The position numbers and the translations under genes were made by a program. From NCBI GenBank assembly GCA_023254095.1, contig JALNLM010000002.1:19538-83537 (forward strand): a stretch of 64,000 nucleotides of DNA, read 5' to 3'. The DNA is from Candidatus Geocrenenecus huangii. Its GTDB lineage: Archaea > Thermoproteota > Nitrososphaeria_A > Caldarchaeales > Wolframiiraptoraceae. The notes under the pieces are model-generated. The model was given only the letters and a program-made list of their open reading frames with translations, made no database searches and was not told the DNA's origin. Below, piece after piece: positions 4,845 through 37,281 of the stretch (the stretch's first letter is position 1; each line of letters begins with the position of its first letter).

Positions 4845-4978
4845 CGCCGGGGGTGGGATTTGAACCCACGAGCCCCGTTTCCCCAATAATTAATGGGGCA
4901 TCGGCTAACTCTTCTCAGTCTGACCATGCTTATTATTGATCTCGAGGCCGACCCTCTACCTGGCTAAGGTACCCCGGC
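4845..4978 (-). tRNA. tRNA-Ser (anticodon CGA) with two introns: about 34 nt in the anticodon loop and a probable 14-nt mini-intron in the variable arm
   Basis: Read by hand on the minus strand: acceptor GCCGGGG/CCCCGGC with discriminator G; D-arm; anticodon stem UCGGC/GCCGA with loop CUCGAG|A; T-arm GUGGG-UUCAAAU-CCCAC. The gene is 134 nt against about 86 nt expected for mature tRNA-Ser. Removing AUCAAUAAUAAGCAUGGUCAGACUGAGAAGAGUU at position 37/38 and AUUAAUUAUUGGGG from the variable arm leaves a canonical Ser variable arm, UGCCCCAAACGGGGCUC. Confidence 0.7.
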
Positions 4979-5023: not shown

Positions 5024-5623
5024 TTATATTCTTGCTGCAAACTCTTCTACGCCTGGATACACTTGTCCGAAGAATTGAATTAACGTATACTCTAATGCAG
5101 CGGCGGCTAATAATAGTATCGCAGTCCCTGCAATTGATATTATCAACCATCTCGACTCTATTCTAGTCTTCTTCTTGAATATGCTGTAAGTAAACAATAT
5201 GCTTTCTGTGAATGCTGTCCCATACGCTAAGAATTCTATCAATCCATAGATTGTTATAATGGTTAAGGATATTAGGAGTATGGGGGGAAAACCTGTGGAG
5301 ACCGATAAGGCTCCTAATAATCTCCCAGTGGTAAAGATTATGTAGCCTCCGACGATCGGTCCAGCTACGGGGATTAACATTATCAATGAGATCAGGAAAT
5401 TGTTTAAGAAGATGTCTATGATTGTAAAGCGTTGTTTAAAGATTTCTTCTGCCTCCTTCATCAATAAATCGGCTTCTTCACTCGATAAAGGTATCGTTGA
5501 TGCAATGTATAAAAGAGAATACAAGGTGAAAGTAAAAATCAATACTATTATAACTCTCTTCTTTACGTCTACTATGCCTGCCGAGACGATCCATCTATAT
5601 CTTTCCAAGTCTCTCATCAACAT
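5024..5623 (-). CDS. Integral membrane protein, possibly SpoIIM/DUF95-like
   Basis: 199 aa with about 5-6 predicted hydrophobic helices. Its start overlaps the 3' end of the upstream PGI/PMI gene by 29 nt. Confidence 0.45.
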   Translation of the reverse strand: MLMRDLERYRWIVSAGIVDVKKRVIIVLIFTFTLYSLLYIASTIPLSSEEADLLMKEAEEIFKQRFTIIDIFLNNFLISLIMLIPVAGPIVGGYIIFTTGRLLGALSVSTGFPPILLISLTIITIYGLIEFLAYGTAFTESILFTYSIFKKKTRIESRWLIISIAGTAILLLAAAALEYTLIQFFGQVYPGVEEFAARI

Positions 5624-6677: not shown

Positions 6678-6919
6678 CTAATGTGTTCAAGATTATCCTG
6701 ATTTTCCTATTTTTAAATATATGCTGAGCAGGTTAAAAGGCGAGCATATAAATAGGCTCTTAAATAATTTAATGCTTTTTCTACTCGGTTTTTACTCGAA
6801 GTATATAGCACCCGAATATTCTATTATTTATTGTTTTTGATTTTATGCTATTTTAGTTTAAGTTCATTTTCAGTAAGGTGTTAATCCATAAAGCCTACAA
6901 TCTACTTGATTAACTTGAA

Positions 6920-7351
6920 ATGAAGTCGCAGAATCTGGAGAAGACTATAGAAGAATTAAGACATAGAGTAGAAACACTTGAACTTGCTCTGGACACCATT
7001 TTGAAGAAGATGCCTGAGATCAGGATAAATGTTGAGGTTCCGAGAATAGTTCTAGAAAAGAAGCCGATACACATAAAAATAAAGGCGAGCGAGCTTCATG
7101 GGAGAATAATGCTTCTTGCTATGGAAGGTTTCTTAGACGATTGGAAAACAGCGGGAGACATCGCCTCCGAGCTTGTGAGAAGAGGTTGGGCACCTAAGGA
7201 CTTCAAGCATGTAAGACCAGTACTAGAACATCTTGTATCTCTAGGTTTAATAGAGAGGATTAGGTCTTCGAAGAAGAAAAGAGGAAGAAAGGCTAAGTGG
7301 CTGTATAGAGCTATGGAGGACTTGTCACAGAAAGTAGAACTGACTCAATAA
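6920..7351 (+). CDS. Hypothetical protein with N-terminal coiled coil and C-terminal winged-helix-like basic domain
   Basis: 143 aa. MKSQNLEKTIEELRHRVETLELALDTILKK is a heptad-like segment. The C-terminus VLEHLVSLGLIERIRSSKKKRGRKAKWLYRA resembles a wHTH followed by a basic tail. It is preceded by a 240-nt AT-rich intergenic region. Confidence 0.4.
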   Translation: MKSQNLEKTIEELRHRVETLELALDTILKKMPEIRINVEVPRIVLEKKPIHIKIKASELHGRIMLLAMEGFLDDWKTAGDIASELVRRGWAPKDFKHVRPVLEHLVSLGLIERIRSSKKKRGRKAKWLYRAMEDLSQKVELTQ

Positions 7352-11560: not shown

Positions 11561-12010
11561 CTACCGCACTTTAATCTTCTTTAACTTTTTAATAATATCT
11601 GTCGTACTGTTTATGCTGCCGGTTCGGTATCGTCTAGCTTTATATATCTTTATCCTTAGATTCCTTTCTTTAACAAATTTTTCAAATTCTCTCATAAGCT
11701 CTATTTGGTCATATCCGAATACAACTATATCTGGTCTAACCTTCTTGATTACCTTATCAAATGAAAACTTCTTGAACCCCAATATGACTTGGTCCACTGG
11801 CTTGAGATTAGAAACTATGTAGACTCTTGACTTCTCATCGAACAACGGTTTTCTATTTTTTCTTTTCTTGATTGTCTCATCTCTAGCTAGGACGACCACG
11901 AGCTTAGAGTTTTTGCCACCCAGCTTCTTAGCCTCCCATAACATCTTAATATGTCCTGGGTGGACTATGTCGAATGCTCCAGAAGTTAAAATTGTAGTCT
12001 TCTCCGCCAT
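11561..12010 (-). CDS. ribL: FAD synthetase (archaeal RibL, FMN adenylyltransferase)
   Basis: 149 aa. TSGAFDIVHPGH is the nucleotidyltransferase HxGH motif, and ARDETIKKRKNRKPLFDEKSRV...LKPVDQVILG closely parallels MJ1179 RibL. It is convergent with ribK. Confidence 0.8.
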   Translation of the reverse strand: MAEKTTILTSGAFDIVHPGHIKMLWEAKKLGGKNSKLVVVLARDETIKKRKNRKPLFDEKSRVYIVSNLKPVDQVILGFKKFSFDKVIKKVRPDIVVFGYDQIELMREFEKFVKERNLRIKIYKARRYRTGSINSTTDIIKKLKKIKVR

Positions 12011-12039
12011 GGCTACTCCTATAATTATTTAATCAGAAT

Positions 12040-13134
12040 TTAAGGCCATTGGAAATCTATCAGGCTCATCATTCTCAAGCTGTCAAGTAAACCTTCTGCG
12101 TACGTTATAGCTCCTAAGGCATTGAAAAGTTCTCCAGAAGACCAGAACCTCTCAGCGTCCTCTAAATAACTTGAAGCAATCTCTAATATTTTATCTACCT
12201 TTTTGCATGGTTTCATCATTTTGAGATTCTCCATCACTTCTCTAGTCTTTACAATGTATCTCCGTATTCTTTCTTTTTCATATCTGGCTGGTTTGTGTCT
12301 TCTAACTACTTCTTCACTTATATTGTACATCTTGCTCAATGCTTCAACCTCCATGAAATGTAGCTCTCCCGGAAAGATAAGTGCATGGGGAGGCGGAGGA
12401 TAATTAACAGATATCAATTCCTTGACCATTCCTACTTTGATGTACTGGTCCTCTAGACCGACCCTCGATAAACCTATAGCTAAAGTATCTTCTCCTAAGA
12501 TCCCTTGATTAAGTCGATCTTCAGCTTCTAAGAGTCTTCTTAATGCGTTTGGGATAGTTAAACCTCCATCCGCCGTATCTAGAAGTATCATGGTATGTAG
12601 ACCTCTTTCTTGATTTTCTTTAATTATCATGTACGTTTCAGCAGGATCTCCAATTAATGGTAGAGTTGTAGTTTTTCCAAACTTGTATACGTGTAAGCCT
12701 GTGATACTTACAGCTGCCGAATATATTGAGATTCCATGGACTATTTTATAAGGAGTTCTTCTTCTGGAAGCCTCAACTAATAGAGACATATGGGTCGTCG
12801 CGATCAAGGGATCTCCTGGAACGAGTATAGCTACATCGATATTCCTAGCCTCCTCTACAATCTTCTCTAAATTATCTTCGAGGTCTCTCCTGCATGCTAG
12901 CTTCAATCTTCCATCAAGTTTCTTCCTTAACCAATCCACCAGTTCCTCAGATATTAAACCTGTATAAGTATCCAGGTAGGCAATATGGCATTTCATGATC
13001 TCTCTAATCGCTTTCAAGCTCGTATAATCTAGGGAGCCTAAACCTAAACCGATTAAATATAATGCCATGACTTGACCTAAACATATTGAGTCTAGCGACA
13101 ATTTATAGGCTAAACTGGATAATAATGAGGACAA
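12040..13134 (-). CDS. dphB: Diphthine synthase (tetrapyrrole-methylase fold) with a C-terminal extension of about 90 aa
   Basis: MALYLIGLGLGSLDYTSLKAIREIMKCHIAYLDTYT matches the DphB N-terminus. The methyltransferase core is about 260 aa, but the ORF is 342-364 aa depending on start. Confidence 0.7.
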   Translation of the reverse strand: MSSLLSSLAYKLSLDSICLGQVMALYLIGLGLGSLDYTSLKAIREIMKCHIAYLDTYTGLISEELVDWLRKKLDGRLKLACRRDLEDNLEKIVEEARNIDVAILVPGDPLIATTHMSLLVEASRRRTPYKIVHGISIYSAAVSITGLHVYKFGKTTTLPLIGDPAETYMIIKENQERGLHTMILLDTADGGLTIPNALRRLLEAEDRLNQGILGEDTLAIGLSRVGLEDQYIKVGMVKELISVNYPPPPHALIFPGELHFMEVEALSKMYNISEEVVRRHKPARYEKERIRRYIVKTREVMENLKMMKPCKKVDKILEIASSYLEDAERFWSSGELFNALGAITYAEGLLDSLRMMSLIDFQWP

Positions 13135-13238
13135 TTATAACAGTATAAGAGCTTTCATTAGGTGGTTCAAAACTCTCCTAGATTTTCTCTATTATAGATC
13201 TTTTTGAAACATCTGGATGGCCAAACCATCAAAGGGAC

Positions 13239-14321
13239 ATGGTTAAATTTAATTCGCTACAACGATATACGGTGAAAGCTGTAGTATTCGCTGCTGGATT
13301 AGGTAAAAGGCTTAGACCTCTCACAAATACGAGACCCAAGCATCTTCTACCTATCAGTGGTAAACCGATTCTGAGAAGAATCCTCGAATCTCTTCTACTA
13401 AATGGCATCGAAGAAGTCGGTATAGTCGTCTCATATATGCCTGACCTAATCATTGAAGATGTGAAGAATTACGGGTTAAGCATGAAGGTCGAATGGATTC
13501 ATCAGAAAGAACCTCTAGGAACAGGTGATGCTCTCAGAGTCTGCGAAGAATTTCTATGTAACGAAGATTACTTCATAGTTGTTTACGGAGATATAACTTT
13601 AAACACTGTAATTCTCGGAAACATTATCCGATTCTTCAATGAAAATATTTGTGATGGAGTAGTCGAAGGAGTATTAGTTGAAGATACGCTTAGATTCGGT
13701 AGAATAATTTCTAGAAATGGTAGACTAGAAAAGATAGAAGAAAAAACAGCTGGTGGCCCTGGATTAGTGAATACTGGTCTATACATCCTTCCACATGATG
13801 CATTAGAGTTTTCCAGACAGATAAACCTATCTAGAAGAGGTGAATACGAGTTAACGGATGTCTTGAACATCCTTGTTTCTAGAAATTACGAGATACTGGT
13901 TCATACTACTGATCAAGATTGGTGGATGGACATAGGTTCTCCGAGGGATTACCTGAAAGCAAACATTAAGAAATTCATAGAAGAGTATGGGAACAGAGTA
14001 ATATGCAATTCTGAAGTAGGTGAAAAAGTAGTCGTGAAACCTCCGTCCATGATACTTGAAGAAGTCGAAGTAGAGAGAGATACTGTAATAGGTCCGAACA
14101 CATTTATAATGAAGAATGTAAGAATAGGCTCGAATACTATAATAGAAAACTCCATCCTCCTCGAAGGGTCCATCATCGGTAGAAGCTCAGTTCTGAGGAA
14201 TGTGATTATAGGAGAATATGTAAAGATAGGCGACAAAGTGCATGTCGAAGGTGGCCAAGAAGTATTAGTCATCTCTCCTAGAACGGAAATAGGAGACAGC
14301 AGCAAGATCAGCATGGTCTAG
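13239..14321 (+). CDS. Sugar-1-phosphate nucleotidyltransferase with C-terminal left-handed beta-helix (GlmU/GCD1-like bifunctional-type)
   Basis: KAVVFAAGLGKRLRPLTNTRPKHLLPI is the GxGxRL nucleotide-binding motif. The C-terminal hexapeptide repeats (IGPNTFIMKNVRIGSNTIIENSIL...) form the LbH domain. The start is probably the GTG at about 13273 (M/VKAVVFAAG). Confidence 0.75.
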   Translation: MVKFNSLQRYTVKAVVFAAGLGKRLRPLTNTRPKHLLPISGKPILRRILESLLLNGIEEVGIVVSYMPDLIIEDVKNYGLSMKVEWIHQKEPLGTGDALRVCEEFLCNEDYFIVVYGDITLNTVILGNIIRFFNENICDGVVEGVLVEDTLRFGRIISRNGRLEKIEEKTAGGPGLVNTGLYILPHDALEFSRQINLSRRGEYELTDVLNILVSRNYEILVHTTDQDWWMDIGSPRDYLKANIKKFIEEYGNRVICNSEVGEKVVVKPPSMILEEVEVERDTVIGPNTFIMKNVRIGSNTIIENSILLEGSIIGRSSVLRNVIIGEYVKIGDKVHVEGGQEVLVISPRTEIGDSSKISMV

Positions 14322-25839: not shown

Positions 25840-27600
25840 TTAGCTTCTTACTGCACTCTTTCCAGCGAGGTATCCGAAAGTCACGGCTCTACTATGGCTA
25901 AGACCTGGAATTACAACAAGCGAATAATATTGGGCATAGAAGCCTCCTGCAGCATTCCCTGCAGCATATAATCCTGGGATGGGTTTACCCTCTTTATCCA
26001 GAACTTGTAGCCCTTTATTTACTTTTAATCCTCCGCCAACCATGTTTAGGAGTACTGCTATACCTTGAATAGCATAAAATGGAGGATTCTCAATAGGTGC
26101 CATGTATCTAGATGGTTTACCGAAATCTTCATCAACTCCTTTCTTACATAACTCGTTATATCTTTCAATCGTCTTCTTGAAGGTTTCTATAGGAACTCCC
26201 ATCTTCTCTGCAAGTTCTTCTATCGTGTTAGCCGTTACTGCTGCTCCATTATTCAATGCACCCTGTAGAAACTCTTTACCCAGCTCTGGATCAGTTATTC
26301 TTCGATAACCACCACCATGTTTAGTAACTTGCTCCTCCCACTTAGAGTCGAATATCGCCCAATACATAGCTTTAGGTTGTTGTAAAACTCTGTTAATAGT
26401 CCACATCCACGGAAGCGCCTCATTTGTGAATCGCTCTCCTAAAGTGTTTACGAATAAGAAGGGGTTGCATATAAGCATGTATCCTTTACCGGGACCTAAA
26501 CCGGCAAGTGAACTTATAGCGAATCCTACGTCACCCCCAGTCATTATGTAACAGAGTGGGCAGTGTGGTGGTTCATCTAGGGCAGCGCCTATCCATAAGC
26601 CCATTAACTGTCCGTCTCCCGTATTAGTTGGAGTAATCATTGGGTAGATTATTCTATTGGGTATATCTGCTAATCTTGCGACTTCAGGTGGAGCCCAAAG
26701 CTTCAGGAGGTCCTTATTTGACGAATAGTCTCCTGTACAGAGAATCACTGCCTTATTTGAAGTAAATTTTATGTATCTACCGTTAGCGTCTTGCGCGACA
26801 ACCCCCGTAACCTTACCGTTCTCTCGGATAAGTTGAACAGCCCTAGTATTGTAATAGAATTTTGCTCCTTTATCTTTAGCTAGTTTCTCCAATACTGGTG
26901 CGAGCTGAGCTACACCGTCAAAATCTGTTTCATCACTGAATTTATAGGTTGGCCTAGGCCATTCTCTCCATTCATCCTCGAGATATGTTTTAGGCTTTAG
27001 TACTTGAGCTGGAATACCATTTGCTCTCGCAAGGTCAGCGATAAAGTCTGCGATTCTTGAGGAATTAGCTAACCACAACCTAACAAGCGATTCATCAACT
27101 TTATTGCCTGAGATTACATCGATCTGCTCACGGATGGCTTTCTCGTAGTCTACAGATATTCCCGCCTCTTTGAAGAGCTTGCCGGCTGGACCAGGATTTA
27201 TGTGGGCTCCTCTGACATTGGGTCCTTTGTGCTTTTCTATAACAACAGTATTAGCTCCTTCTTCAGCGGCCGAGTATGCGGCCATCAGTCCAGCTAGACC
27301 AGCACCAACGACTACGATGTCGGCAGTAATTTTTTCAGCTATTTTTTCATCAGGTATTGGCAGTGGAGGAGTAAGTATTGCAGGTTCACCTGCAACTGTA
27401 ACTGTTGATGTTTGAGTTACAGTAGTTGGTTTAGTAACCGTTGTTGTCTCAACTTTTGTCTCTGTTATCTTTATTTCTTTCGGAAATACTTGGCTACCAA
27501 TTATTCCACCAACGACAAGTCCTGCAACGCCCGTTGCAGTCGCGGATAAGAAACTCCTACGTGAGACTTTTGCACCTTTTTCGGGAGCTTGTGCACTCAT
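25840..27600 (-). CDS. Exported FAD-dependent oxidoreductase (FAD_binding_2; fumarate-reductase/KstD-like flavoprotein) with Tat-type signal anchor and Thr/Pro-rich stalk
   Basis: 586 aa. The N-terminus KVSRRSFLSATATGVAGLVVGGIIG is a twin-arginine motif followed by a hydrophobic helix. Residues about 45-85 are Thr/Pro-rich (TTVTKPTTVTQTSTVTVAGEPAILTPPLPIPDE). ADIVVVGAGLAGLMAAYSAAEEG is the FAD dinucleotide-binding motif. The C-terminal GLYAAGNAAGG is typical of FAD_binding_2 reductases. Confidence 0.8.
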   Translation of the reverse strand: MSAQAPEKGAKVSRRSFLSATATGVAGLVVGGIIGSQVFPKEIKITETKVETTTVTKPTTVTQTSTVTVAGEPAILTPPLPIPDEKIAEKITADIVVVGAGLAGLMAAYSAAEEGANTVVIEKHKGPNVRGAHINPGPAGKLFKEAGISVDYEKAIREQIDVISGNKVDESLVRLWLANSSRIADFIADLARANGIPAQVLKPKTYLEDEWREWPRPTYKFSDETDFDGVAQLAPVLEKLAKDKGAKFYYNTRAVQLIRENGKVTGVVAQDANGRYIKFTSNKAVILCTGDYSSNKDLLKLWAPPEVARLADIPNRIIYPMITPTNTGDGQLMGLWIGAALDEPPHCPLCYIMTGGDVGFAISSLAGLGPGKGYMLICNPFLFVNTLGERFTNEALPWMWTINRVLQQPKAMYWAIFDSKWEEQVTKHGGGYRRITDPELGKEFLQGALNNGAAVTANTIEELAEKMGVPIETFKKTIERYNELCKKGVDEDFGKPSRYMAPIENPPFYAIQGIAVLLNMVGGGLKVNKGLQVLDKEGKPIPGLYAAGNAAGGFYAQYYSLVVIPGLSHSRAVTFGYLAGKSAVRS

Positions 27601-27651
27601 ATGGAGAAATTCTTCTCAGCTCAATTTAAGATTTCTGAGACATTAGGTAAA

Positions 27652-27661
27652 TTATATAAAT
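27652..27661 (-). promoter_or_regulatory. TATA-box-like element (ATTTATATAA on the minus strand) upstream of the first exported flavoprotein gene
   Basis: It lies about 50-60 nt upstream of the ATG at 27600, within the 285-nt AT-rich spacer between the two paralogous flavoprotein genes. Confidence 0.3.
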
Positions 27662-27885
27662 ACAAAAAGAAACTTCTAAGTATATTCCATATATAACATA
27701 TCAGCAGAGGAGAGACTGTTCTCATCGTGACAAAAAAAGTAAAGGTAGTTTCTCTGGCTGGCTAAAGCACTTACCTAAACTGCAGGGAAATCAATAGCCC
27801 GCTTGTAGGATGATCCTTCGGATTAACGTACTAAATGAAAGGTAGCAGATACTAATTGTAGAATTTTATGGGATCTATGCCTCGG

Positions 27886-29676
27886 TTATTTTTCTCTTGA
27901 AGCGTTTTTTCCCGCTATGTATCCTGTCGTCCAAGCCATACTATGACTTAGCCCTGGACATATAAGTGGATAATCTAATCCAAACCTTCTTCCAACGAGG
28001 TTTCCGGTAACATATAAGCCGGGTATCGCTTTTCCATCTTTATCCACCGGTTGTAGGTTTTCATTTGTGATTAGCCCGCCCATTGTAACTAGGAATGCTG
28101 CTTGAGGAGGGTTCCAGTTTGCGTAAAAAGGCTTCGTGTCCACGGGAAACAAGTAATCCGATCTCTTACCGAAATCCTCGTCTACTCCTTTCCTACATAG
28201 TTCATTGTATCTTTCGACTGTTTTCTTGAATATTGCAACGTCTAATTCCGGAGTAATTCCCCTCATTTTTTCTGCAAGTTCATCAATAGTATTTGCTTCT
28301 ATTATCTGTCCTGACTCTATCTTCTCCTGGAATTCTTTCAATGTTATATCGTCGGCTTTCCAAATTCTGAAAAATCCTGGCCCTAAGTTATATGTATACT
28401 TTGGCCAATTTGAATCGAAAACAACCCATATGCCTCCATTCCTCAAACATTGTATTGGAAATGCTAGAACATTCGAGATTAAGTCCTCGTTGGCGAATCT
28501 TTTACCAAATTTATCGATCATTAAAAATGGGGCGGTCCCCATTGCATGCCAAGCATGAACCATTGCACAATGTGGTCTCGGCTCAATCTGTGCACCTATC
28601 CAATAGGCCATTAAATGCCCATCACCGGTAGGCGAGGGCAATCCAAAGATGCTTCTTAAGTCTGGTAACTTAGCAAATTCCTCAGGTAAGAAATACTCCA
28701 CCATTGCTCGGTTACCTCCATAGTCCCCTGTTGAAAGTATTATGGCCCTTCTAGCCCTAAATCTTATGTATTTTCCATCTTTTGTCTGAGCTATTACTGC
28801 TTTAACCCCTCCATTGTCAGGTCTTTCAAGCCTTAATGCATTCGTCTCATACCTTATCTCTACCCCCAGATCTCTTGCTTTCTTTTCCAGAATTGAGAGT
28901 AGTAAACCCTGATTCGCTGTTGGTGTATCCCCAAATCTATGACATGTTGGATATTCTATATATGTCTGCTTTCTGTAGTCCCATCCAGGTGGAGCCTCAG
29001 TGGGAGGCCACTTATCAACCACGAAAGTGTATTTATCTGTTCTATCCGGAATAACCAGCCAAGTCTTCACGCCCTCCTTTTCACATATATCTATGAGCCA
29101 ATCCATTACCTTGCCAGAATTATAAGCCCATAATCTGATTATTCTTTCGTCAGCTCTATAACCTGAAATTTCCATTAGCTTTTTAATGACTTCCTCAGGC
29201 TCAATATAAATGCCTAGTTGTTTATGTTTCTTGCTATTTAAAGCTGTGTTGTCGCCACCACGTGCAGAAAAAGTAGACTCACGTTCAAGCAAAACTACCT
29301 CTACTCCTTCCTCAGCAGCCGCGACTGCTGCAGCTAATCCAGATGTACCAGCACCGACTATTACTACATCATATTCTAGAGTTTGCGCTATCTGTTCGTC
29401 TGGGATAGGTGGTGGAGGAATTAAGAAGATCGGTTCAGGCGATATAATTGTTGTAGTAGTTGATACTTGAGTTAAAGTAGTGGGTTTGGTTATAGTACTT
29501 GTTTCAGTTTTCGTTTCTGTGGTTCTTACTTCTTTAGGGAAAGCTTGACTACCAATTATTCCCCCTAAGATTAAACCGATTATGCCTGAGGAGATTGATG
29601 CAACAACACTTCTCCTACTAATTTTACCAGTCTCTTCACTCATGATTTCAGAGACCTCAAACTTATTATCTGACAC
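27886..29676 (-). CDS. Exported FAD-dependent oxidoreductase, paralog of 25840..27600 (same Tat-anchor, Thr/Pro-stalk and FAD_binding_2 architecture)
   Basis: 596 aa. KISRRSVVASISSGIIGLILGGIIG is the RR motif plus TM helix. The Thr/Pro-rich linker is TETKTETSTITKPTTLTQVSTTTTIISPEPIFLIPPPPIPDE. YDVVIVGAGTSGLAAAVAAAEEG is the FAD motif, and the C-terminus has GLYVTGNLVGRRFG. It is co-linear with the upstream paralog but clearly diverged. Confidence 0.8.
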   Translation of the reverse strand: MSDNKFEVSEIMSEETGKISRRSVVASISSGIIGLILGGIIGSQAFPKEVRTTETKTETSTITKPTTLTQVSTTTTIISPEPIFLIPPPPIPDEQIAQTLEYDVVIVGAGTSGLAAAVAAAEEGVEVVLLERESTFSARGGDNTALNSKKHKQLGIYIEPEEVIKKLMEISGYRADERIIRLWAYNSGKVMDWLIDICEKEGVKTWLVIPDRTDKYTFVVDKWPPTEAPPGWDYRKQTYIEYPTCHRFGDTPTANQGLLLSILEKKARDLGVEIRYETNALRLERPDNGGVKAVIAQTKDGKYIRFRARRAIILSTGDYGGNRAMVEYFLPEEFAKLPDLRSIFGLPSPTGDGHLMAYWIGAQIEPRPHCAMVHAWHAMGTAPFLMIDKFGKRFANEDLISNVLAFPIQCLRNGGIWVVFDSNWPKYTYNLGPGFFRIWKADDITLKEFQEKIESGQIIEANTIDELAEKMRGITPELDVAIFKKTVERYNELCRKGVDEDFGKRSDYLFPVDTKPFYANWNPPQAAFLVTMGGLITNENLQPVDKDGKAIPGLYVTGNLVGRRFGLDYPLICPGLSHSMAWTTGYIAGKNASREK

Positions 29677-29790
29677 TGGAAATTTTAGCGTTTGGTCAGT
29701 AGAATGTATACCCTTAATACTTAGGTTGTAAAGAATATCTATACTTAGGATGGATAAGGCTAATATTTTAACGATAGATAAACCTCTCTG

Positions 29791-31245
29791 ATGTTTAGGA
29801 AGAATCTTGTCCAGCGATGGGATACTCTTGATAGAATTTCACACCTGATAAATTTATCCGGTATACTTATAGCAATAATTTCTGGTCTTCCTCAATTAAA
29901 TCTTACTTTATTCGGATTTAATTTAGGAGCACAGTTCAGATGGATAACAGACGTAATCGGTGGAGAGGGAGTACGACGAATACTACACAGGTACGTCGTT
30001 ACAGGCTTAATTAGCTTAGCATTTACAGTTCACGTTTTCGGGTTTGGTTTGAAGAAGAAAAAATCTCATATATTATTCACATTCAGAGATTTAAAGGACC
30101 TCGTAGCGTATTACGGACATAAATTCTTTAGGAAGGCTAAGCCTGTTCTCGGGTTTCATGTCCCTGGAGAGAAGCTGCTGTATTGGGTTGCACTAATATG
30201 CCTATTCATTCTCGGCTCTACGGGTATAATAATGTGGACAAGGTTTCTCTATATTGACTACAACTTGCTTAGACTATTTCACAGGATTGCTTCTATTATC
30301 TTGTCGTTATTTGTCTTGGTACATTTCATATTGAACATAATCTTGCCAGAACAGCGTTCAGCAATGAGAGCTATGTTCATTAACGGTAAAGTGCCAGAAG
30401 AATGGGTTAAACAGCACCATCCGAAAATGTTCGAGGAGGAAGAGCAAACATTGTTGACAAGACGTAGAATGATAAAGACGTTTCTCTGGCTTATCCCTGC
30501 AATAGGTTTTTCCTATCTCTTTTCAGAATTACTACAAAAACCACAATGTCGGATAGGAGATATAATAGTAGAACCCCCTAAAGTCATGGTTGGTAAACCA
30601 TTCGTAATATCTGTGGAAGTAACGAATATGGGTTACAGGGAAAGCTCATTTCCAATTCAATTATCAGTAGATGGTAAGATAGTAGCAGAGAAAAATATTG
30701 CTCTACTCGATGGTGAAACAAATCTGATCAATTTCAAGACAACCATCAACGAAATAGGCCGACATACAATAGAAGTAAATGGTGTCTCAAAGATGATCGA
30801 AGTAGTAGAGGCGCCTCCACCAATCGAGAAAGAGTTAGCAGATAAATTCAAAGAACTATTTCCAACAGCATACGATTTTGTCCCGGTTGTGAAAGACGGC
30901 AAAATAGTATATTATGAAATATATGATGCTGAAGGAATGCTAATAGGCTATGGTTTCCATGAAAGAGTATACGCTCCAACGGATAGACTTACCGTGACAG
31001 GAATTATTGACCTAGATTACAAGGTCAGGATGATAGATGTCGAGAAATTAAAACCGGACATTCATGTTCTGAATGATAAGATATTAGATCCCGATTTTGA
31101 AAATCAATTTATAGGTTTAACCATTGAGGAAATGAGGTTGTCTCCTGAAGGAAAGATCGACGCAGTTTCTGGAGCAACGATATCATCGACTCTGATAGTA
31201 GAAACTATAAGAAAAATACTTGAAGAAGTTCAATCGCCTTCGTAA
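29791..31245 (+). CDS. Fusion protein: N-terminal diheme b-type cytochrome (Ni_hydr_CYTB/FdnI-like, 4-5 TM), then CARDB-like Ig-fold domain, then C-terminal FMN-binding domain with covalent-flavinylation motif
   Basis: 484 aa. TM helices carry paired His spaced 13-14 residues apart (HRYVVTGLISLAFTVHVFGF; HRIASIILSLFVLVHFILN) plus His in TM1. The middle region IIVEPPKVMVGKPFVISVEVTNMGYRESSFPIQLSVDGKIVAEKNIALLDGETNLINFKTTINEIGRHTIEV is a CARDB-type fold. The C-terminal ...KIDAVSGATISSTLIVETI matches the FMN_bind D(x)xSGAT flavinylation motif, with the Thr codon at 31177-31179. Confidence 0.75.
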   Translation: MFRKNLVQRWDTLDRISHLINLSGILIAIISGLPQLNLTLFGFNLGAQFRWITDVIGGEGVRRILHRYVVTGLISLAFTVHVFGFGLKKKKSHILFTFRDLKDLVAYYGHKFFRKAKPVLGFHVPGEKLLYWVALICLFILGSTGIIMWTRFLYIDYNLLRLFHRIASIILSLFVLVHFILNIILPEQRSAMRAMFINGKVPEEWVKQHHPKMFEEEEQTLLTRRRMIKTFLWLIPAIGFSYLFSELLQKPQCRIGDIIVEPPKVMVGKPFVISVEVTNMGYRESSFPIQLSVDGKIVAEKNIALLDGETNLINFKTTINEIGRHTIEVNGVSKMIEVVEAPPPIEKELADKFKELFPTAYDFVPVVKDGKIVYYEIYDAEGMLIGYGFHERVYAPTDRLTVTGIIDLDYKVRMIDVEKLKPDIHVLNDKILDPDFENQFIGLTIEEMRLSPEGKIDAVSGATISSTLIVETIRKILEEVQSPS

Positions 31246-32135
31246 ATTCGAAAATTTCTAGTTTTTATTATGTCTCTATTATTTGTGATTATCATTGCCT
31301 CCGCTTCTCCTAATTCTTCAATGAGGTGAATGCTCTCAGATGGATTCATGGCGCATAAGCTGGTGGCGAGAGCATCAGCTATTAAGGCTCTCTCCGTAAT
31401 TACTGTGGCGCTAACCACCTGACTACTCAGTGAATTCTTTAGGTAAGGATTTAAAATATGAGAAAAGTTCCCACTCCCTATTCTACGTTCATAGTTTCCA
31501 CTTGTTGCTACAGAAGAACTATATATCATTAACTTACAGATACTCTTATCTTTCTCAAATGGATTTCTAATAGCTATCCTCCAGGGTTCTCCATCTGTTT
31601 TCTCACCTACTGCTTTCAGGTCTCCTCCGGCATTAATCAACGCGTGCTTAACTCCATGTTTTATTAAATATTCCGATGCCAAATCAACGGCATATCCTTT
31701 AGCTACGCTATTTAAGACGATCTTCATGCCTTTCTTTAAGAATCTTATGCTCTTCCCACTGATCTCGATGAGTGAATAATCGACTAACTCTAGAATTCTT
31801 TCTAATTCTTCCTCATCCAGTTCTCCACGTTTTCTAACGATGTATTCTATTAATGGTAGTATAGTTACATCGTATACTCCTCTAGTTAATTTGCTTATCC
31901 TGATAGCCTCTTTCAAGATATAGATTAATTCATCACTTGCGTGTTCTAGGAATCCTTCCTTATTTAATTTGTTAACTTCACTTTCTTCATCATATATGCT
32001 CATAATTCTTTCTATACGCTTTAATTCGCTAAATGCTTCATCTATTATCCTTTTAGCATATCCTATATCTTCGTGAACTAAGGTTATTGTAACGATGGTG
32101 CCCATTGAAAACGTAGACTTTCTGATGCTGAACAT
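31230..32135 (-). CDS. apbE: ApbE-family FAD:protein FMN transferase (flavin transferase)
   Basis: 301 aa. FSMGTIVTITL is the ApbE N-terminal MGT motif. NSVAKGYAVDLASEYLIKHGVKHALINAGGD, PWRIAIRNPFE and ATSGNYERRIGSGNFSHILNPY align with the conserved ApbE FAD-binding and catalytic blocks. It overlaps the 3' end of the cytochrome-b/FMN_bind fusion gene by 16 nt (convergent). Confidence 0.85.
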   Translation of the reverse strand: MFSIRKSTFSMGTIVTITLVHEDIGYAKRIIDEAFSELKRIERIMSIYDEESEVNKLNKEGFLEHASDELIYILKEAIRISKLTRGVYDVTILPLIEYIVRKRGELDEEELERILELVDYSLIEISGKSIRFLKKGMKIVLNSVAKGYAVDLASEYLIKHGVKHALINAGGDLKAVGEKTDGEPWRIAIRNPFEKDKSICKLMIYSSSVATSGNYERRIGSGNFSHILNPYLKNSLSSQVVSATVITERALIADALATSLCAMNPSESIHLIEELGEAEAMIITNNRDIIKTRNFRIYEGD

Positions 32136-32404: not shown

Positions 32405-34063
32405 ATGGCTGCAGCACCTTCTTCAGCAGGAGGTATCCCCGTAATAGTTTTGAAAGAGGGGACGACAAGATCGAGGGGTAGAGAAGCACAACTCTCAAAC
32501 ATCACTGTTGCAAAGATCATCGCTGAGACAATGAAGTCTTCTCTAGGTCCTAGAGGGATGGATAAGATGCTTGTAGACAGTTTTGGAGACGTTGTCATAA
32601 CCAATGACGGCGCAACCATACTCAAAGAAATGGACGTAGAACATCCGGTAGCCAAGATGTTAGTAGAGGTAGCTAAAGCTCAAGATGCAGAAGTCGGCGA
32701 TGGGACAACTACGTCGGTTGTACTGGCTGGAGAACTACTTGCAAAAGCTGAAGAATTAATCGAGAAAGAAGTTCATCCGACCTTGATAATAGAAGGATAC
32801 AAGAAAGCAGCAACTAAAGCGTTAGAGCTATATGATAAGATAGGCGTCTCTGTAAGTCCTAAAGATAACGAGATATTAAAGAAGATAGCTAAGACGGCGA
32901 TGATCAGCAAACTTGTAGGTGAGGAGGCAGATTATCTTGCAGAAATCTCTGTTGAGGCAGTCTTGAAAGTGGCCGAGCTAGCAGAGAATAAATGGAGAGT
33001 CGACTTAGATGACGTAAAGATAGAGAAGAAAGAGGGCGGCTCACTTAGAGATACTAGGCTCATTGAAGGAATAGTACTGGATAAAGAGGTAGTCCATCCT
33101 GGGATGCCAAAAATAGTACATAACGCAAAGATCGCATTACTTGATGCATCATTAGAGATTGAGAAGACGGAATTTGACGCTAAACTTAACATTGAGAGCC
33201 CAGAGCAGATGAGAGCGTTCATGAAGCAAGAAGAAGAAATGCTTAAAGAAATGGTTGAGAAGATCGCTGCCACAGGCGCAAACGTTGTCTTATGCCAAAA
33301 AGGCATCGACGATATGGCTCAGCACTTCTTAGCGAGAAAGGGAATAATGGCGGTTAGAAGAATAAAGAAATCAGATATGGACAAACTAGCTAAAGCGACA
33401 GGTGGAAGAGTAGTAACGAGGATAGAAGAATTATCTGAGCAAGATCTTGGCAGGGCGAAGATAGTAGAAGAAAGAAGGGTCGGAGAAGACAAAATGGTCT
33501 TCGTGGAAGGATGCGAGGATCCCAAATCTATAACCATACTTATAAGAGGGGGAACGAAGAGGATAGTAGATGAGGCTGAACGTTCCATCAAGGATGCATT
33601 GAACGTAGTCAAAGACGTAGTTATCGAAGGAAAAATAGTAGCGGGCGGTGGAGCGCCTGAAACAGAAGTAGCTCTTGGACTTAGAGATTATGCCAAGACA
33701 CTGGCCGGGAAAGAACAGCTCGCAGTAGAGAAATTCGCTGAAGCCATTGAGATAGTTCCATCTCAGCTAGCAGAGAATGCTGGAATGGATCCTATTGAGA
33801 CTATAGTTAATCTTAGAGCCAGGCATAAAGAAGGAGAGAAATGGGCTGGAGTTAACGTCTTCGCAGGCAAGATAGACGATATGTGGAAGCTGGAGGTTCT
33901 AGAACCTTTACTGGTGAAGAAGCAGGTAATTAAATCAGCAGTCGAAGCAGCATCGATGATCTTGAAGATCGATGACATCATAGCGGCATCAAAATTAGAA
34001 GAGAAGAAACCCGGAAAAGAAAAAGAGAAGGAGAAGGAAGAGTCGGAGTTTGGAGAGGACTGA
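32405..34063 (+). CDS. ths: Thermosome subunit (group II chaperonin, Cpn60/TCP-1 family)
   Basis: 552 aa. [18 protein letters not shown], the ATP-binding GDGTTT motif and the VAGGGAPE block are present. The C-terminal Lys/Glu-rich tail ([20 protein letters not shown]) is typical of thermosome subunits. Confidence 0.95.
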
Positions 34064-34316
34064 AGACAAATACTACAGAAGACCTCTTACAAAGTATGAG
34101 ATAGCGAGAATAATTGGAGGAAGAGCACTACAATTATCTCTAGGTGCCTTCCCTCTTGTCGAAGTAAAGCCTAACGATAGCCCAATAGATATTGCAAAGA
34201 GAGAACTCGAAGCCGGGGTCTTACCAATAATAATAAGGAGAAGAAAACCAGACGGAACATACGTAGACATACCGGTTAATGAGCTTCTTAAACCAATCGA
34301 GCAAACAGTAGAGTAG
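34050..34316 (+). CDS. rpoK: DNA-directed RNA polymerase subunit K (Rpo6/RpoK, omega/Rpb6 homolog)
   Basis: 88 aa. [21 protein letters not shown] is the conserved Rpb6/RpoK core. The start overlaps the thermosome stop by 14 nt. Confidence 0.8.
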
Positions 34317-34318
34317 AT

Positions 34319-34519
34319 ATGGATGAAGATACAACTTCATGGATGATCGCCACCATCGTATTGTCTCTAGTAACCGCATTCCTCACGGTATACCAGGTGA
34401 GAGAATCCTACATCCTCCAACCTACTTTTTTCTTTTTTGTATTTCAACTCTCTTCTCTGATATGTTTCCTAATCCTTTTTTCCCTCTTAGCCAGGAAGCA
34501 TATATCTGGAAATAAATAA
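34319..34519 (+). CDS. Small hypothetical single-pass membrane protein
   Basis: 66 aa with one strongly hydrophobic helix (WMIATIVLSLVTAFLTVY). It begins 3 nt after rpoK. No family recognised; it could be spurious. Confidence 0.25.
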   Translation: MDEDTTSWMIATIVLSLVTAFLTVYQVRESYILQPTFFFFVFQLSSLICFLILFSLLARKHISGNK

Positions 34520-34644
34520 TAGGAGGAAGTAGAGAATTTTCACATCTCCTTAGAAGGCCGAATATACCTCGTGTAATCTCAAGGTATAACTCGGATATTC
34601 TAAAAAAGTAAAGGATTAATTGTTCTAGACCAATCATTTAAAAG

Positions 34645-35727
34645 ATGTATCGTAGTGGGCTGAGAGACCTTGAAATTCACTACACGTATAGGTCTAGATG
34701 GTATTATGAGAGAGCTGAAAAAATCTTAACAGCCCTCGTAGACTCATATCTTAGCTTACATGGTCCTAGGAAGTTCTTGAGAGGTTTATCATCGCCAGTT
34801 TTCTTTGATGCTTTATCCGTTGCTTCGTTTCTCGACGAACTCGAAGGCGGGGCTACGACTATAATGGCGACAGTTTTCAAGAATATTATCAGACCTGAGG
34901 ATGGTTTAGCGGTCGTAGGAGGGAAAAGATTAGAAGGATATAGAGTACCAGCCGAGCTAGATATTGTGGGGAGAGAATTCGGCTTCAGTTCAGAGAAGCT
35001 GGAGAAGTTAAAGTATGCAAGTAGAATGGTTGCAAAAGTAGATAACGTGGCTATACAGGATGGGTTCCCCCTATACTTCCACATGATGATAGTTTCAAGA
35101 GATGGTGAATGGACTGTCGTCCAGCAAGGAATAAAAACACTAGAAGGTTTAGTCAGAAGATACCACTGGACATCTATAAAGATAAAGAGCTTCGTGGAAG
35201 AACCTCATACAGGTATAATCTCAGCCCATCGAGAAAAGATCGTGATAGATATGACGAGTATGAAGAGTGATGAAGCTAGGAAGGCATGTGTTGAACTAGT
35301 AACACAGGATTTCAAAAAACTGAAAAGATTACATGAAGCTTTCTCGAAAGGCCTCCAAATGAGGTTGACGGATCTAGATGAATCAGTTGGAGATATAAAG
35401 CTTGAAGTTCCAAGTATAAAATGGGTCTACCTCCAATCTCTGTATAATCAGCAGCCGAGGAATTTTGAGGAACTATTGTCACATAGAGGGATAGGGGTAC
35501 AGACGTTGAGATTTCTAGTATTCGCGTGTATACAGCTATACCAGGTTTATCCAAGCTTCGAGGATCCAGCCATATCTTTTGATGAAGCTTATAGGCTGAC
35601 TGAAACTCTAGATGATGAACGTATCTATGAAGTGATGGACGCTTTAAAAGAATCTTCCTTGGAAATATTCTTGAAGAAAGTCTCCTACAATAGATTATCT
35701 AACTTTATCCAGGGTATGGAGAGTTAG
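34645..35727 (+). CDS. Conserved hypothetical protein (possibly DUF763-like; uncertain)
   Basis: 360 aa, soluble, with no recognised catalytic motif. Codon usage is consistent with the neighbours and the reading frame is clean. Confidence 0.45.
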   Translation: MYRSGLRDLEIHYTYRSRWYYERAEKILTALVDSYLSLHGPRKFLRGLSSPVFFDALSVASFLDELEGGATTIMATVFKNIIRPEDGLAVVGGKRLEGYRVPAELDIVGREFGFSSEKLEKLKYASRMVAKVDNVAIQDGFPLYFHMMIVSRDGEWTVVQQGIKTLEGLVRRYHWTSIKIKSFVEEPHTGIISAHREKIVIDMTSMKSDEARKACVELVTQDFKKLKRLHEAFSKGLQMRLTDLDESVGDIKLEVPSIKWVYLQSLYNQQPRNFEELLSHRGIGVQTLRFLVFACIQLYQVYPSFEDPAISFDEAYRLTETLDDERIYEVMDALKESSLEIFLKKVSYNRLSNFIQGMES

Positions 35728-35785
35728 AGAAAGTTTTATCCATCTAATAGATGCTCGGACTTCGAAAATAATAATTTTTAATTTT

Positions 35786-36904
35786 TTAACGTTCTCTTTT
35801 CCCTTGTATGAATTCTTCAACCATCTGTCTAGCGACTTCGTCTGGATACTGTATTGGTGGAGACTTCATGAAGTATGCTGAAGGGCTTATCAATGGTCCA
35901 GCTACTCCCCTGTCCTTACCAATCTTAGCGCATCTCACTGCATCTATGACTACCCCTGCAGAGTTCGGGCTATCCCATACTTCAAGCTTGGCCTCAATAG
36001 TTAAAGGAGCTCCTCCGAATGCTGTTCCTTCAAGTCTTATGTAAGCCCATTTTCTATCTCTTAGCCATGGAACGTAGTCGCTTGGACCAATATGTATGCA
36101 TTCATCTGGAATACTGTACGGGATTATACTTCTCACAGCATCCGTCTTAGATATCTTCTTAGAGGAAAGTCGTTCTCTTTCAAGCATGTTTAGGAAATCA
36201 GTGTTTCCTCCAAAGTTTAATTGGTAAGTCCTCTCCACCTTGACACCTCTATCAAGAAATAGCTTTACTAGGTATCTATGAAGTATGGTGGCTCCTACTT
36301 GGCTTTTAACGTCGTCTCCTATTATTGGTAGGCCACGCTTAGTGAAGACCTCCTGCCATCTAGGCTCTCTAGCGATGAAGACAGGTATACCATTAACGAA
36401 TGCTGCTCCAGCTTCTAGAACTTGTTCTACGTACCATTTAGTTGCAGACTCACTCCCTACAGGCAGAAAGTTCACTACGACGTCTGCACCACTGCTCCTT
36501 AATACATCTACAACATCTACCGTCGGTGAAGGATGCTTCTCTATTACTTGTGAAACATATTTACCTAAGCTATCATGAGTCATTCCACGGGAAACCTCAA
36601 CACCTAGCTTAGGAACATCTGCAAATTTTAATGTACAATTAGGTGGAGCAAAAATAGCCTCCGATAAGTCTTTTCCAACCTTATTCTTATCTATATCGAA
36701 TGCGGCCACGAATTCTATATCTCCAACATGGTAAGGTCCTAGTCGGACATGCATGAGTCCTGGAATGAATTCATTCTCATCGGCATCTTTATAGTAGTGT
36801 ACTCCTTGCACAAGTGCTGAGGCACAATTACCTACACCTATTATAGCAACTCTTACCTTCGGCATGTTATATATTGTATAGAAGGGAGCATATAAGTATT
36901 TCAT
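35786..36904 (-). CDS. myo-Inositol-1-phosphate synthase (archaeal MIPS/Ino1 family)
   Basis: [19 protein letters not shown] is the NAD-binding N-terminus typical of archaeal MIPS, and the central and C-terminal blocks are consistent. The likely true start is [10 protein letters not shown] at about 36862. Confidence 0.65.
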
Positions 36905-36945
36905 GATTGTAAAATAGTCTCACAGGGATGCCGGACCCTTTAAAC

Positions 36946-37281
36946 TCAGTGAATAGTATTAACAAGGTCTTGCAATAATCTCTTTGCTATTTCAAGTTCT
37001 TTCAAACCCTTCTCTGTAATATCGTAGTATCTTCGAGGCGCACCCTTACTCTTCTCGGAAACTTCTCTAGATGATATGAGGCCTTCTCTCTCGAGTTTGT
37101 AGAGTACGACATAGCAGGTTATCTTCCCAGGCTTAAACCTAAACCTCTCAAAGATCTTGTCTCTTATCTCATAACCGTATAGTGGGCCATCCCTCAATAA
37201 AGTTAGAACATATATCCAGAGATTCTCAATAGTAATTTTTCTGATGAACCTACTTATTGCTTTGCTCTCCATACCTTCCAT
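36946..37281 (-). CDS. PadR-family transcriptional regulator
   Basis: 111 aa. LLRDGPLYGYEIRDKIFERF...ITCYVVLYKLEREGLISS is the PadR wHTH signature. Confidence 0.7.
   Translation of the reverse strand: MEGMESKAISRFIRKITIENLWIYVLTLLRDGPLYGYEIRDKIFERFRFKPGKITCYVVLYKLEREGLISSREVSEKSKGAPRRYYDITEKGLKELEIAKRLLQDLVNTIH

Follow-up and report, generated by a model that had tools for sequence, protein, structure and literature searches.

We consider a locus in a 64,000-nucleotide stretch of DNA of a hot-spring archaeon from contig JALNLM010000002.1 (the window), where two neighbouring genes on the minus strand, A (25840..27600) and B (27886..29676), encode flavin adenine dinucleotide (FAD) enzymes that appear to be carried across the cell membrane. 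The question that this locus raises is what such a pair of flavoproteins does outside the cell, and with what partner it exchanges its electrons. A better description of the pair is that of two distinct terminal flavin oxidoreductases on a lineage-restricted hub, a fusion of a cytochrome b with a flavin mononucleotide (FMN) domain that is encoded by the adjacent gene C. It is a variant combining flavin reductases exported by twin-arginine translocation (Tat), ApbE flavin wires and dual Sec/Tat membrane proteins, and no new category. In particular, we put at roughly 55% the probability that A and B are Tat-exported, membrane-anchored terminal reductases fed by C.

The paired flavoproteins

Gene A encodes 586 residues from an ATG. 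Gene B can be read from a GTG (596 residues) or from an ATG at 29643, 11 codons 3' of the GTG (585 residues, near the length of A). Because the second start, with the N-terminus MSEETGKISRR..., agrees with that of an ortholog of 90% identity (P0008), B probably starts at this ATG. The original prediction gave the two genes one architecture, and both open reading frames do have it: a twin-arginine motif, a 25-residue uncharged helix, a Thr-rich linker and an FAD domain, in this order. The catalytic domain is FAD_binding_2 (PF00890), as had been proposed, with a Pfam E-value of 3.7e-47 (161.9 bits) in A and 3.9e-42 (145.3 bits) in B against a cut-off of 20.4 bits, and the GxGxxG motif of its dinucleotide fold is found as GAGLAG at residue 99 and GAGTSG at residue 108. 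The two proteins are 41% identical over their full length (BLASTP, E 2e-102), B belonging to another PF00890 subfamily than A. The AlphaFold model of A has a mean predicted local distance difference test score (pLDDT) of 86.7; the score stays under 50 over residues 1-69, and confidence is high from about residue 70 on. The best fold match of this model is UrdA (PDB accession code: 6t86; Foldseek template-modelling score 0.84, E 6e-35), and the top matches are UrdA, Fcc3 and KstD.

We turn to the front end of the two proteins. Each N-terminus (KVSRRSFLSATATGVAGLVVGGIIGSQVFPKE in A and KISRRSVVASISSGIIGLILGGIIGSQAFPKE in B) has a short charged n-region, a twin-arginine (RR) motif, which is SRRSFL in A and SRRSVV in B, and 25 uncharged residues ending in GGIIGSQ(V/A)FPKE. 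The putative Tat-type signal-anchor of A, with a Gly-rich helix that ends GGIIGSQVFP, takes up residues 1-39 (27484..27600, minus strand) and is followed by the linker at residues 40-75 (27376..27483, minus strand; pLDDT <50). In B the signal-anchor (ISRRSVV...GGIIGSQAFP) and the linker together span 29425..29643 (minus strand). The hydropathy peaks lie at residues 17-35 in A and 24-42 in B. A TATFIND-type rule, applied by hand, looks for at least 13 uncharged residues after an RR that is located within the first 35 residues, and both proteins show this pattern, with the RR at residues 14-15 in A and at 21-22 in B (10-11 when counted from the ATG). The N-terminus of A also scores 24.3 bits on the curated model TIGR01409 (TAT_signal_seq), above the cut-off of 16.7, and 17.7 bits on PF10518, below the cut-off of 22.7. 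The Tat assignment of B is made by homology to A (the RR, the 25 uncharged residues and an N-terminal module of 58% identity) and not by profile. Lys and Arg residues stand before the helix and none after it, and by the positive-inside rule the passenger domain would lie outside.

The linkers contain 12 Thr in 35 residues (A, binomial P 3e-8) and 14 Thr in 37 residues (B, P 4e-9), compared with 4.7-5.5% Thr in the remainder of the proteins. The stalk of about 40 residues had originally been taken as rich in both Thr and Pro. The threonine part of that description holds and the proline part does not: the linkers are rich in Thr, Val, Glu and Lys with just 2-3 Pro, and the prolines belong to PPxPIP(D/E), the conserved opening of the catalytic domain that is also present in leaderless homologs. 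The O-glycosylation that had also been suggested for the stalk is conjectural. Among the 113 open reading frames of at least 70 residues in the window, only A and B combine an RR and a hydrophobic N-terminus with a Thr-rich segment, and the front end is therefore no compositional accident.

The same position in bacterial homologs is informative. An RR motif, typically SRRxFLKG, is found in 87 of the 120 best homologs of A, and 71 of the 156 scorable homologs of A and B have both an RR and a lipobox Cys, followed by a linker rich in Ala, Pro, Glu, Ser and Thr (median 27 residues). By these motifs the bacterial homologs are Tat lipoproteins on a flexible leash, with the archaeal RR helix and Thr-rich linker standing in the equivalent position. 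Tat export, which had been predicted from the two genes themselves, is thus supported as the most economical export reading by homologs of about 40% identity that carry canonical SRRxFLK signals, often with a lipobox, and in one locus with an adjacent TatA gene. Very probably, A and B are exported already folded and are tethered outside the membrane.

The cytochrome b-FMN hub and its flavin transferase

If A and B work outside the membrane, the next question is which component could exchange electrons with them. Gene C (29791..31245, plus strand, 484 residues) diverges from B and encodes an FdnI-type di-haem cytochrome b with four transmembrane helices, an RRR motif with a fifth transmembrane helix (TM5), an immunoglobulin-like CARDB domain and an FMN_bind domain. 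Pfam finds Ni_hydr_CYTB (PF01292, 50.4 bits against a cut-off of 30.1), CARDB and FMN_bind, the last being RnfG-like. Residues 1-219 of C align end to end with E. coli FdnI (PDB accession code: 1kqf_C; E 7e-12), and all four haem ligands are kept (H18, H66, H164 and H178 in C for H18, H57, H155 and H169 in FdnI). C differs from FdnI by its fused CARDB and FMN_bind domains, predicted to be extracellular, and by its presumed partner, a flavoenzyme and not a Mo/FeS dehydrogenase. Hydropathy and charge indicate four helices with both ends in the cytoplasm, then a cytoplasmic stretch up to TRRRMIK, TM5, the CARDB β-sandwich and the FMN_bind domain.

Two short segments of C bear on how its flavin domain would be made and moved. 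Residues 457-463 (31159..31179, plus strand) form DAVSGAT, an ApbE flavinylation motif in which Thr463 is the predicted FMN acceptor; G461, A462 and T463 are invariant in an alignment of 12 sequences, and the segment aligns with the solved FMN domain 8p2b at ...SGAT. Neither A nor B has a flavinylation motif of its own. Residues 222-248 (30454..30534, plus strand) comprise TRRRMIK and the weakly hydrophobic TM5, a putative internal Tat signal-anchor, and R224 and R225 are invariant in the 12 homologs. A stand-alone CARDB-FMN_bind protein (P0136) has the N-terminus KKISRRSFLAKLLWIVPAAAVG, a textbook Tat signal (SRRSFL) that aligns with the RRR-TM5 segment of C, and three further stand-alone relatives (P0247, P0248 and P0258) have N-termini with signals of the SRR(G/S)FL type. 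In its own locus (L069, 1553-4046) P0136 follows a DmsB-like 4Fe-4S protein with a Tat signal and a DmsC-like membrane subunit, where the CARDB-FMN module thus appears to be paired with a differing quinol-interacting membrane partner.

The layout of C, a conserved RR before a last, weakly hydrophobic transmembrane helix, positive charges after this helix and a C-terminal cofactor domain, is that of dual Sec/Tat proteins. The summed Hessa value of TM5, a crude measure of hydrophobicity, is positive (+0.8 to +5.4), and one or two Lys or Arg residues follow the helix (...LLQKPQCR). Weak hydrophobicity of the last helix and positive charges behind it have been shown to bring about a hand-over from Sec to Tat in the actinobacterial Rieske protein, in the haem b-molybdenum cofactor protein Sco3746 and in a polyferredoxin (Tooke et al., PMC5449189). 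C shares with these proteins, of which Sco3746 and the polyferredoxin also have five transmembrane helices, the four Sec-type helices with haem-ligand His residues, the cytoplasmic loop and the RR before the last helix. It is unlike them in its predicted covalent FMN, a cofactor not among the described families, and in its archaeal host.

The enzyme for attaching the FMN is encoded next to C. The ApbE gene (31230..32135, minus strand) encodes a full-length FAD:protein FMN transferase of 301 residues (Pfam ApbE, E 1.9e-69, 234.6 bits). No part of this protein is hydrophobic enough for a signal or a membrane helix, and two codons ahead of the ATG, past a single Ser codon, the reading frame is closed by a stop. 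It cannot carry a signal peptide and is predicted to be cytoplasmic. The ApbE orthologs in two related loci (L009 and L010) are leaderless as well. Of the parts of an ApbE system, the cluster has the ApbE gene together with an FMN_bind domain bearing Dxx(S/T)GA(S/T), and it lacks the extracytoplasmic ApbE, with a signal peptide or lipoprotein signal, of the bacterial paradigm. The leaderless ApbE, the RR helices and the Tat signals of the stand-alone relatives point to attachment of the FMN in the cytoplasm followed by Tat export of the FMN domain, a route of which no description was found in the literature searched. The genes for C and ApbE converge, with 16 bp shared by their 3' ends at 31230-31245, and a related locus (L001, 6260-6275) has the same overlap.

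The order ApbE/C/B/A is syntenic in Aigarchaeota metagenome-assembled genomes (MAGs), where the proteins share 69-88% identity with their counterparts in the window, and in every orthologous locus C is accompanied by reductase genes and ApbE. In Geocrenenecus and Terraquivivens, C is divergent from a PF00890 gene that a leaderless ApbE gene follows. The reductases of these sister genera share only some 30% identity with A and B; two have the canonical HHTMGG, 'E(L/R)xRD' and 'NR(L/I)G' motifs and a third has a KstD-like Tyr. All of them nevertheless begin with K-(V/I)-(S/T)-R-R ... GI(I/A)GL(I/V)VGG(I/V)xGSQAFP(K/R)E and continue with a Thr/Val/Glu linker. Because the anchor is kept on reductases so different, the conserved unit appears to be C with ApbE, and the reductases appear to be exchangeable cargo with a lineage-specific anchor. 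A 210-residue open reading frame between ApbE and the intact reductase gene in Ca. Geocrenenecus (L009, 1343-1975, minus strand) is a collapsed canonical reductase of the fumarate/urocanate type with an internal deletion ('AVRHTMGGTGIN'), and this remnant speaks for a turnover of the reductase cargo at the hub. In Ca. Terraquivivens (L010), a gene like that of phosphoenolpyruvate carboxykinase lies between two reductase genes (5444-7249, minus strand) and two genes like that of cytochrome bd oxidase subunit I lie directly downstream of C (11700-14011, minus strand), a neighbourhood that hints at a quinone-linked setting and possibly at fumarate metabolism.

C itself is rare. Among 5.8 billion proteins it forms 16 clusters, all of at least 53% identity, and among 1.84 billion representatives of 50%-identity clusters one full-length representative is found. 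Out of 185,579 species genomes four have C: an Aigarchaeota MAG, Ca. Geocrenenecus dongiae, Ca. Terraquivivens tengchongensis and a bin labelled Desulfurococcaceae, whose layout is like that of Terraquivivens.

Active sites and enzyme class

We then ask what kind of reaction A and B could catalyse. By sequence and by fold, the closest solved structures are the Shewanella flavocytochrome c fumarate reductases, UrdA and the 3-ketosteroid dehydrogenases, at 22-25% identity. A profile of 36 family members was aligned to a Shewanella fumarate reductase (PDB accession code: 1d4c) and to UrdA (6t85) for the active-site columns, and A was aligned to KstD1 (4c3x). In the column of Fcc3 H365 (UrdA Y373), A has C350 and B has Val; in that of Fcc3 R402 (UrdA R411), A has W398 and B has Ser. 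The column of Fcc3 H504 (in 'HHTMGG') is Val in the family block 'LLVTLGG', which reads LLNMVGGG in A and FLVTMGG in B, and the column of Fcc3 R545 (in 'NRLGGN') is hydrophobic in both. The original prediction had quoted LNMVGGGL and LVTMGGLI as replacements of the HxTMGG-type block and had suggested non-fumarate substrates; both blocks are present, and the replacement extends to the equivalents of H365, R402, H504 and R545 in A, in B and in the family consensus. These columns rule out A and B as fumarate or urocanate reductases, and fumarate is very unlikely to be the substrate of either. We agree with the earlier view that the substrates themselves cannot be read from the sequence.

At the position of R545 the family has a 3-residue insertion bearing an invariant Tyr. 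Y559 and G566 of A, invariant in 36 homologs, align with chain residues 507 and 511 of KstD1, which are the native Tyr487 and Gly491, the pair that polarises the C3 carbonyl of the steroid. The proposed comparison with Fcc3, UrdA and KstD thus gives a loss of the Fcc3 and UrdA residues and a match to the Tyr/Gly pair of KstD. A and B share the fold of KstD1 and differ from it in the column of the catalytic base Tyr318, which is W398 in A and Ser in B, and in their location, as KstD1 is cytoplasmic and A and B are predicted to be exported. Since the variable active-site columns differ between A and B, their substrates probably differ too.

No equivalog cut-off of NCBIfam is reached by A or B. 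The top model, the vinyl phenol reductase VprA (NF053717), gives 177.7 and 178.5 bits against a cut-off of 600; the soluble fumarate reductase model of the Fcc3 type (TIGR01813) gives 163.7 (A) and 124.2 (B) against 285; the KstD models give 120-163 against 788-789 (NF009478: 163 and 120 bits against 789); and the TcuA and flavocytochrome c models are also below their cut-offs. UrdA is rejected in the 6t85 alignment by the absence of Tyr373 and of the Arg pair (R411 and the Arg of the C-terminal 'NRLGGN') from their columns. In the respiratory flavin reductases described by Little et al., only one clade keeps the Arg pair and the others have a conserved Tyr at the position of the second Arg (10.1101/2022.12.26.521950); the family of A and B, which has no Arg pair and does have the Tyr, agrees with the clades without the pair.

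Relatives and origin

The closest records come from Nitrososphaerota/Aigarchaeota MAGs and from Wolframiiraptoraceae genera. An NCBI 'FAD-dependent oxidoreductase [Nitrososphaerota archaeon]' matches A at 100% identity and an Aigarchaeota MAG protein matches it at 87%, which makes the host an archaeon of the Caldarchaeales/Aigarchaeota; the 'crenarchaeon' of the original prediction does not apply in the strict sense. A few archaeal members aside, the family is bacterial, with about 1500 matches of some 40% identity (Thermacetogenium, Syntrophomonadaceae, Sporomusa, Thermincola, Anaerolineae). In the bacterial loci the reductase genes lie in tandem, accompanied by genes for NapC/NirT tetrahaem quinol dehydrogenases, for cytochrome c maturation, for TatA and for PucR-type regulators. 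The closest relatives of B are leaderless proteins of other Nitrososphaerota MAGs (59-66% identity), and the next are Tat-signal proteins of Anaerolineae-type bacteria (46-50% identity); Anaerolineae-type enzymes, at 46-52% identity, are nearer to B than A is. The nearest archaeal relatives outside Aigarchaeota, of A (52%; Conexivisphaera, P0007) and of B (59-66%; P0139-P0144), start at PPxPIP and lack both the RR helix and the linker; presumably they are the cytoplasmic forms of the two enzymes.

Do A and B descend from one gene that was duplicated in this lineage? The catalytic domains were placed in a neighbour-joining tree (48 taxa, 458 columns). All of its 100 bootstraps unite B with bacterial sequences and leave A outside, and none shows a clade of archaeal A and B alone. 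A and B therefore come from two subfamilies, and the phylogeny that had been suggested as a check contradicts the claim of an old duplication with substrate specialisation, B being nearer to bacterial enzymes than to A. The N-terminal modules of A and B are 58% identical, compared with 44% for the catalytic domains, while the third-codon-position identity is not raised (26/49 in the module and 95/204 in the catalytic domain). These values point to conservation of the shared modules as proteins and away from recent gene conversion, and a recent tandem duplication or conversion as the source of the shared N-termini is rejected by these values and by the tree. From the sequences, the N-terminal module alone appears to be lineage-common to A and B, and the catalytic domains do not appear to be products of duplication in the lineage.

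Promoter regions and surroundings

B and A are separated by 285 bp on the same strand (27601-27885). About 65 nt before the start codon of A there is an AT-rich, TATA-like tract, TTTATATAA, and for this reason A probably has a promoter of its own. The divergent intergenic region between B and C (29677..29790) is a presumed promoter region and holds two direct ATACTTAGG repeats 24 nt apart. The 10-mer WATACTTAGR has 5 copies in the window, where 1.4±1.1 are expected, with one before A (27675-27684) and two between B and C (29716-29725 and 29740-29749). The element ATACTTAG of both promoter regions has no exact copy in the 87%-identical locus L008, where a degenerate TATACTTAAAG is found instead. 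As a weak lead, the ATACTTAG/WATACTTAGR element may be a regulator site or a promoter element. A sigma-70 promoter scan (24 hits, 19±3 expected) and an intrinsic-terminator scan (0 terminators) do not apply to an archaeon.

The rest of the cluster neighbourhood in the window consists of housekeeping genes. The block thermosome-(Rpb6)-DUF763-inositol-1-phosphate synthase-PadR (window 32405-37281; L001 279-5200) is inverted relative to the four-gene cluster in related Aigarchaeota MAGs, where PadR abuts ApbE; in the window the thermosome gene does. Elsewhere, Rfam finds a tRNA at 4845-4978 (minus strand, 134 nt, 44.9 bits, full model 1-71), presumably with an intron; ARAGORN finds no tRNA in the window.

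A model for the locus and its alternatives

Combining the gene content, motifs, folds, synteny and phylogeny of the locus, we infer the export route, the fate of the anchor, the electron path, its direction and the class of substrate as follows. A and B would fold and load their FAD in the cytoplasm and be exported by Tat. On the outer face of the membrane they would be held by their N-terminal signal-anchor, left uncleaved, with a flexible linker of some 35-40 residues, rich in Thr, between anchor and enzyme, an arrangement that would be the archaeal counterpart of the bacterial tether made of lipobox and linker. Helices 1-4 of C would be inserted by Sec; the leaderless ApbE would attach the FMN in the cytoplasm, and the folded CARDB-FMN part would then pass through Tat by way of the RR-preceded TM5. 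Electrons would go from the membrane quinol to the FdnI-type di-haem cytochrome b of C, from its haems to the covalent FMN on the extracellular FMN_bind domain, from there to the FAD of A or B, and finally to an organic acceptor. The two acceptors would be different, neither fumarate nor urocanate, and likely compounds with an activated C=C bond or one conjugated to a carbonyl.

The nearest known systems share parts of this model. The bacterial respiratory flavin reductases of Eggerthella, Sutterella and Holdemania (Little et al., 10.1101/2022.12.26.521950), with the uncharacterised Thermacetogenium/Syntrophomonadaceae homologs, resemble A and B in family (about 40-50% identity), Tat signal, tether with linker and several genes per locus; both groups lack the Arg pair and have a Tyr in the region of the second Arg. 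They differ in their bacterial hosts, a lipobox Cys with an Ala/Pro/Glu linker and a NapC/NirT tetrahaem cytochrome c as donor, where A and B have an archaeal host, an RR helix that looks uncleaved, a Thr-rich linker and the cytochrome b-FMN fusion with ApbE as the proposed donor. With Shewanella Fcc3/FccA (1qjd, 1d4c) and UrdA (6t85, 6t86), A and B share the two-domain FAD fold, a proposed extracytoplasmic location and a quinol-linked supply; they lack a fused haem c or FMN domain, have other residues at H365/Y373, R402/R411, H504 and R545, and are only about 23-25% identical. Like the Listeria FrdA/PplA-type systems with ApbE/FmnB (PMC8238504, PMC11334425), the cluster unites an ApbE gene, an FMN_bind domain with Dxx(S/T)GA(T/S) and a PF00890 reductase, and its membrane cytochrome b feeder is conceptually akin to MsrQ-like, PepSY-like and DUF4405 systems (PMC8238504, PMC11334425). 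Unlike in Listeria, ApbE has no signal peptide, and one fused protein carries an FdnI-type cytochrome b (PF01292), an RR helix and, behind this helix, the FMN domain. Since the FMN would already be in place when the folded domain leaves the cytoplasm through Tat, FAD would not have to be supplied outside the cell. The listed partners of flavinylation include MsrQ-like, PepSY-like, NapH-like, DsbD and Nqr/Rnf-like proteins (PMC8238504), with DUF4405 added later (PMC11334425), and neither list contains a PF01292 fusion. The swapping of flavinylated and cytochrome c partners on fumarate-reductase-like enzymes is documented (PMC8238504).

Several results weigh against the model. The N-terminus of B (SRRSVV) has no match to the Tat profiles TIGR01409 and PF10518, and TM5 of C matches no Tat profile. 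No TatA or TatC gene was found in the 64-kb window, to which the search was confined and where TatA was looked for by motif and by Pfam on 20 neighbouring open reading frames. As the nearest archaeal relatives of A and B are leaderless, export is a trait of the lineage and not a property of the family. Three further features, the FdnI-type cytochrome b, the KstD-like Tyr/Gly pair and the cytochrome bd genes beside C in Terraquivivens, fit an oxidative flow of electrons, and a candidate cleavage site (SQA|F), with small residues at -3 and -1 in B and most A orthologs, raises the possibility that the anchor is removed. The last two points lead to alternatives of their own.

In the oxidative alternative, A and B would be extracellular KstD-like dehydrogenases or desaturases, and electrons would run from FAD to FMN, to haem b and to quinone at the cytoplasmic face, in a half loop that generates proton-motive force as in formate dehydrogenase-N, and on to a quinol oxidase or some other acceptor. 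The classical role of an FdnI-type subunit is to take electrons from a periplasmic dehydrogenase and pass them to quinone on the cytoplasmic side, and C resembles FdnI in its membrane domain and keeps the four haem ligands; the Tyr487/Gly491 match and the cytochrome bd oxidase subunit-I-like genes point the same way. The subunit is not decisive, however, in view of the thiosulfate reductase subunit PhsC, a precedent for an FdnI-like protein that oxidises quinol, and the membrane potential would assist a reductive flow, as has been proposed for PhsC. The KstD catalytic base Tyr318, moreover, has Trp (A) and Ser (B) in its column. Canonical fumarate/urocanate-type enzymes occupy the same slot in the sister genera, and the bacterial homologs, in strict anaerobes, lie beside NapC/NirT-type quinol dehydrogenases, which supports the reductase direction, as does the documented exchange of cytochrome c and flavinylated modules on fumarate-reductase-like enzymes (PMC8238504). 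The characterised signal-bearing PF00890 enzymes are reductases (10.1101/2022.12.26.521950; PMC8238504), and the lineage is described as anaerobic (PMC9246946). Taken with these points, we consider the oxidative direction unlikely, while giving it real weight.

Two other alternatives concern the location of A and B. With the signal removed by cleavage behind ...GSQA, A and B would end up as soluble enzymes or as enzymes held at the S-layer by their Thr-rich N-terminal tails, as might be expected from the small residues of S-Q-A|F and from bacterial homologs that are processed lipoproteins. A itself, however, has SQV, with a poor residue at -1; the uncharged segment of 25 residues has the length to span a membrane; a linker beside a removed signal would tether nothing; and the helix sequence is kept on reductases about 30% identical in their catalytic domains, which argues for a retained, functional helix. 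Cleavage is on this account improbable. It is more improbable still that A and B are not exported at all, with the RR helix a plain membrane anchor of enzymes facing the cytoplasm and the neighbourhood of C and ApbE either coincidental or serving a cytoplasmic flavinylated partner. This would suit the cytoplasmic ApbE and the leaderless closest archaeal relatives, and Klebsiella offers a known case of a cytosolic fumarate reductase flavinylated by an ApbE that is itself cytosolic (PMC12052999). It is at odds with the charge distribution around the helix, the TIGR01409 score of A, the positional equality of the N-terminal module with bacterial Tat lipoprotein signals, the lack of a flavinylation motif in A and B, and a gene cluster conserved across genera; also, as the chain of C is back in the cytoplasm after its four Sec-type helices, TM5 would put the FMN domain outside. 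We thus retain the model of reductases anchored outside and fed by C.

Implications

The locus extends the extracytoplasmic flavin reductases, respiratory enzymes that form a large, emerging and poorly charted class in anaerobic bacteria, to thermophilic archaea with other wiring, the NapC-type cytochrome c of the bacteria being replaced by a lineage-restricted cytochrome b-FMN fusion. The leaderless ApbE and the RR helices on all three parts predicted to be exported imply that the cofactors are loaded in the cytoplasm and that export is by Tat. We propose, tentatively and with somewhat less confidence than we have in the reductase model itself, that this is an undescribed build of an extracytoplasmic flavin wire, in which all cofactors would be installed inside, the C-terminal domain of a five-helix cytochrome b fusion would be flavinylated by the cytoplasmic ApbE and exported by Tat through an internal RR helix, and the reductases would dock on the hub via their Gly-rich anchor helix, giving a respiratory outlet to Aigarchaeota without a c-type cytochrome or extracellular flavin. 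If true, C would represent a fifth family of dual Sec/Tat membrane proteins, in which a covalent flavin would be met for the first time, and it would explain how covalent FMN reaches the outside of the cell without a flavin exporter. Aigarchaeota of the Wolframiiraptoraceae type are described from their genomes as anaerobic fermenters, and for these archaea the locus would then be a candidate respiratory electron sink.

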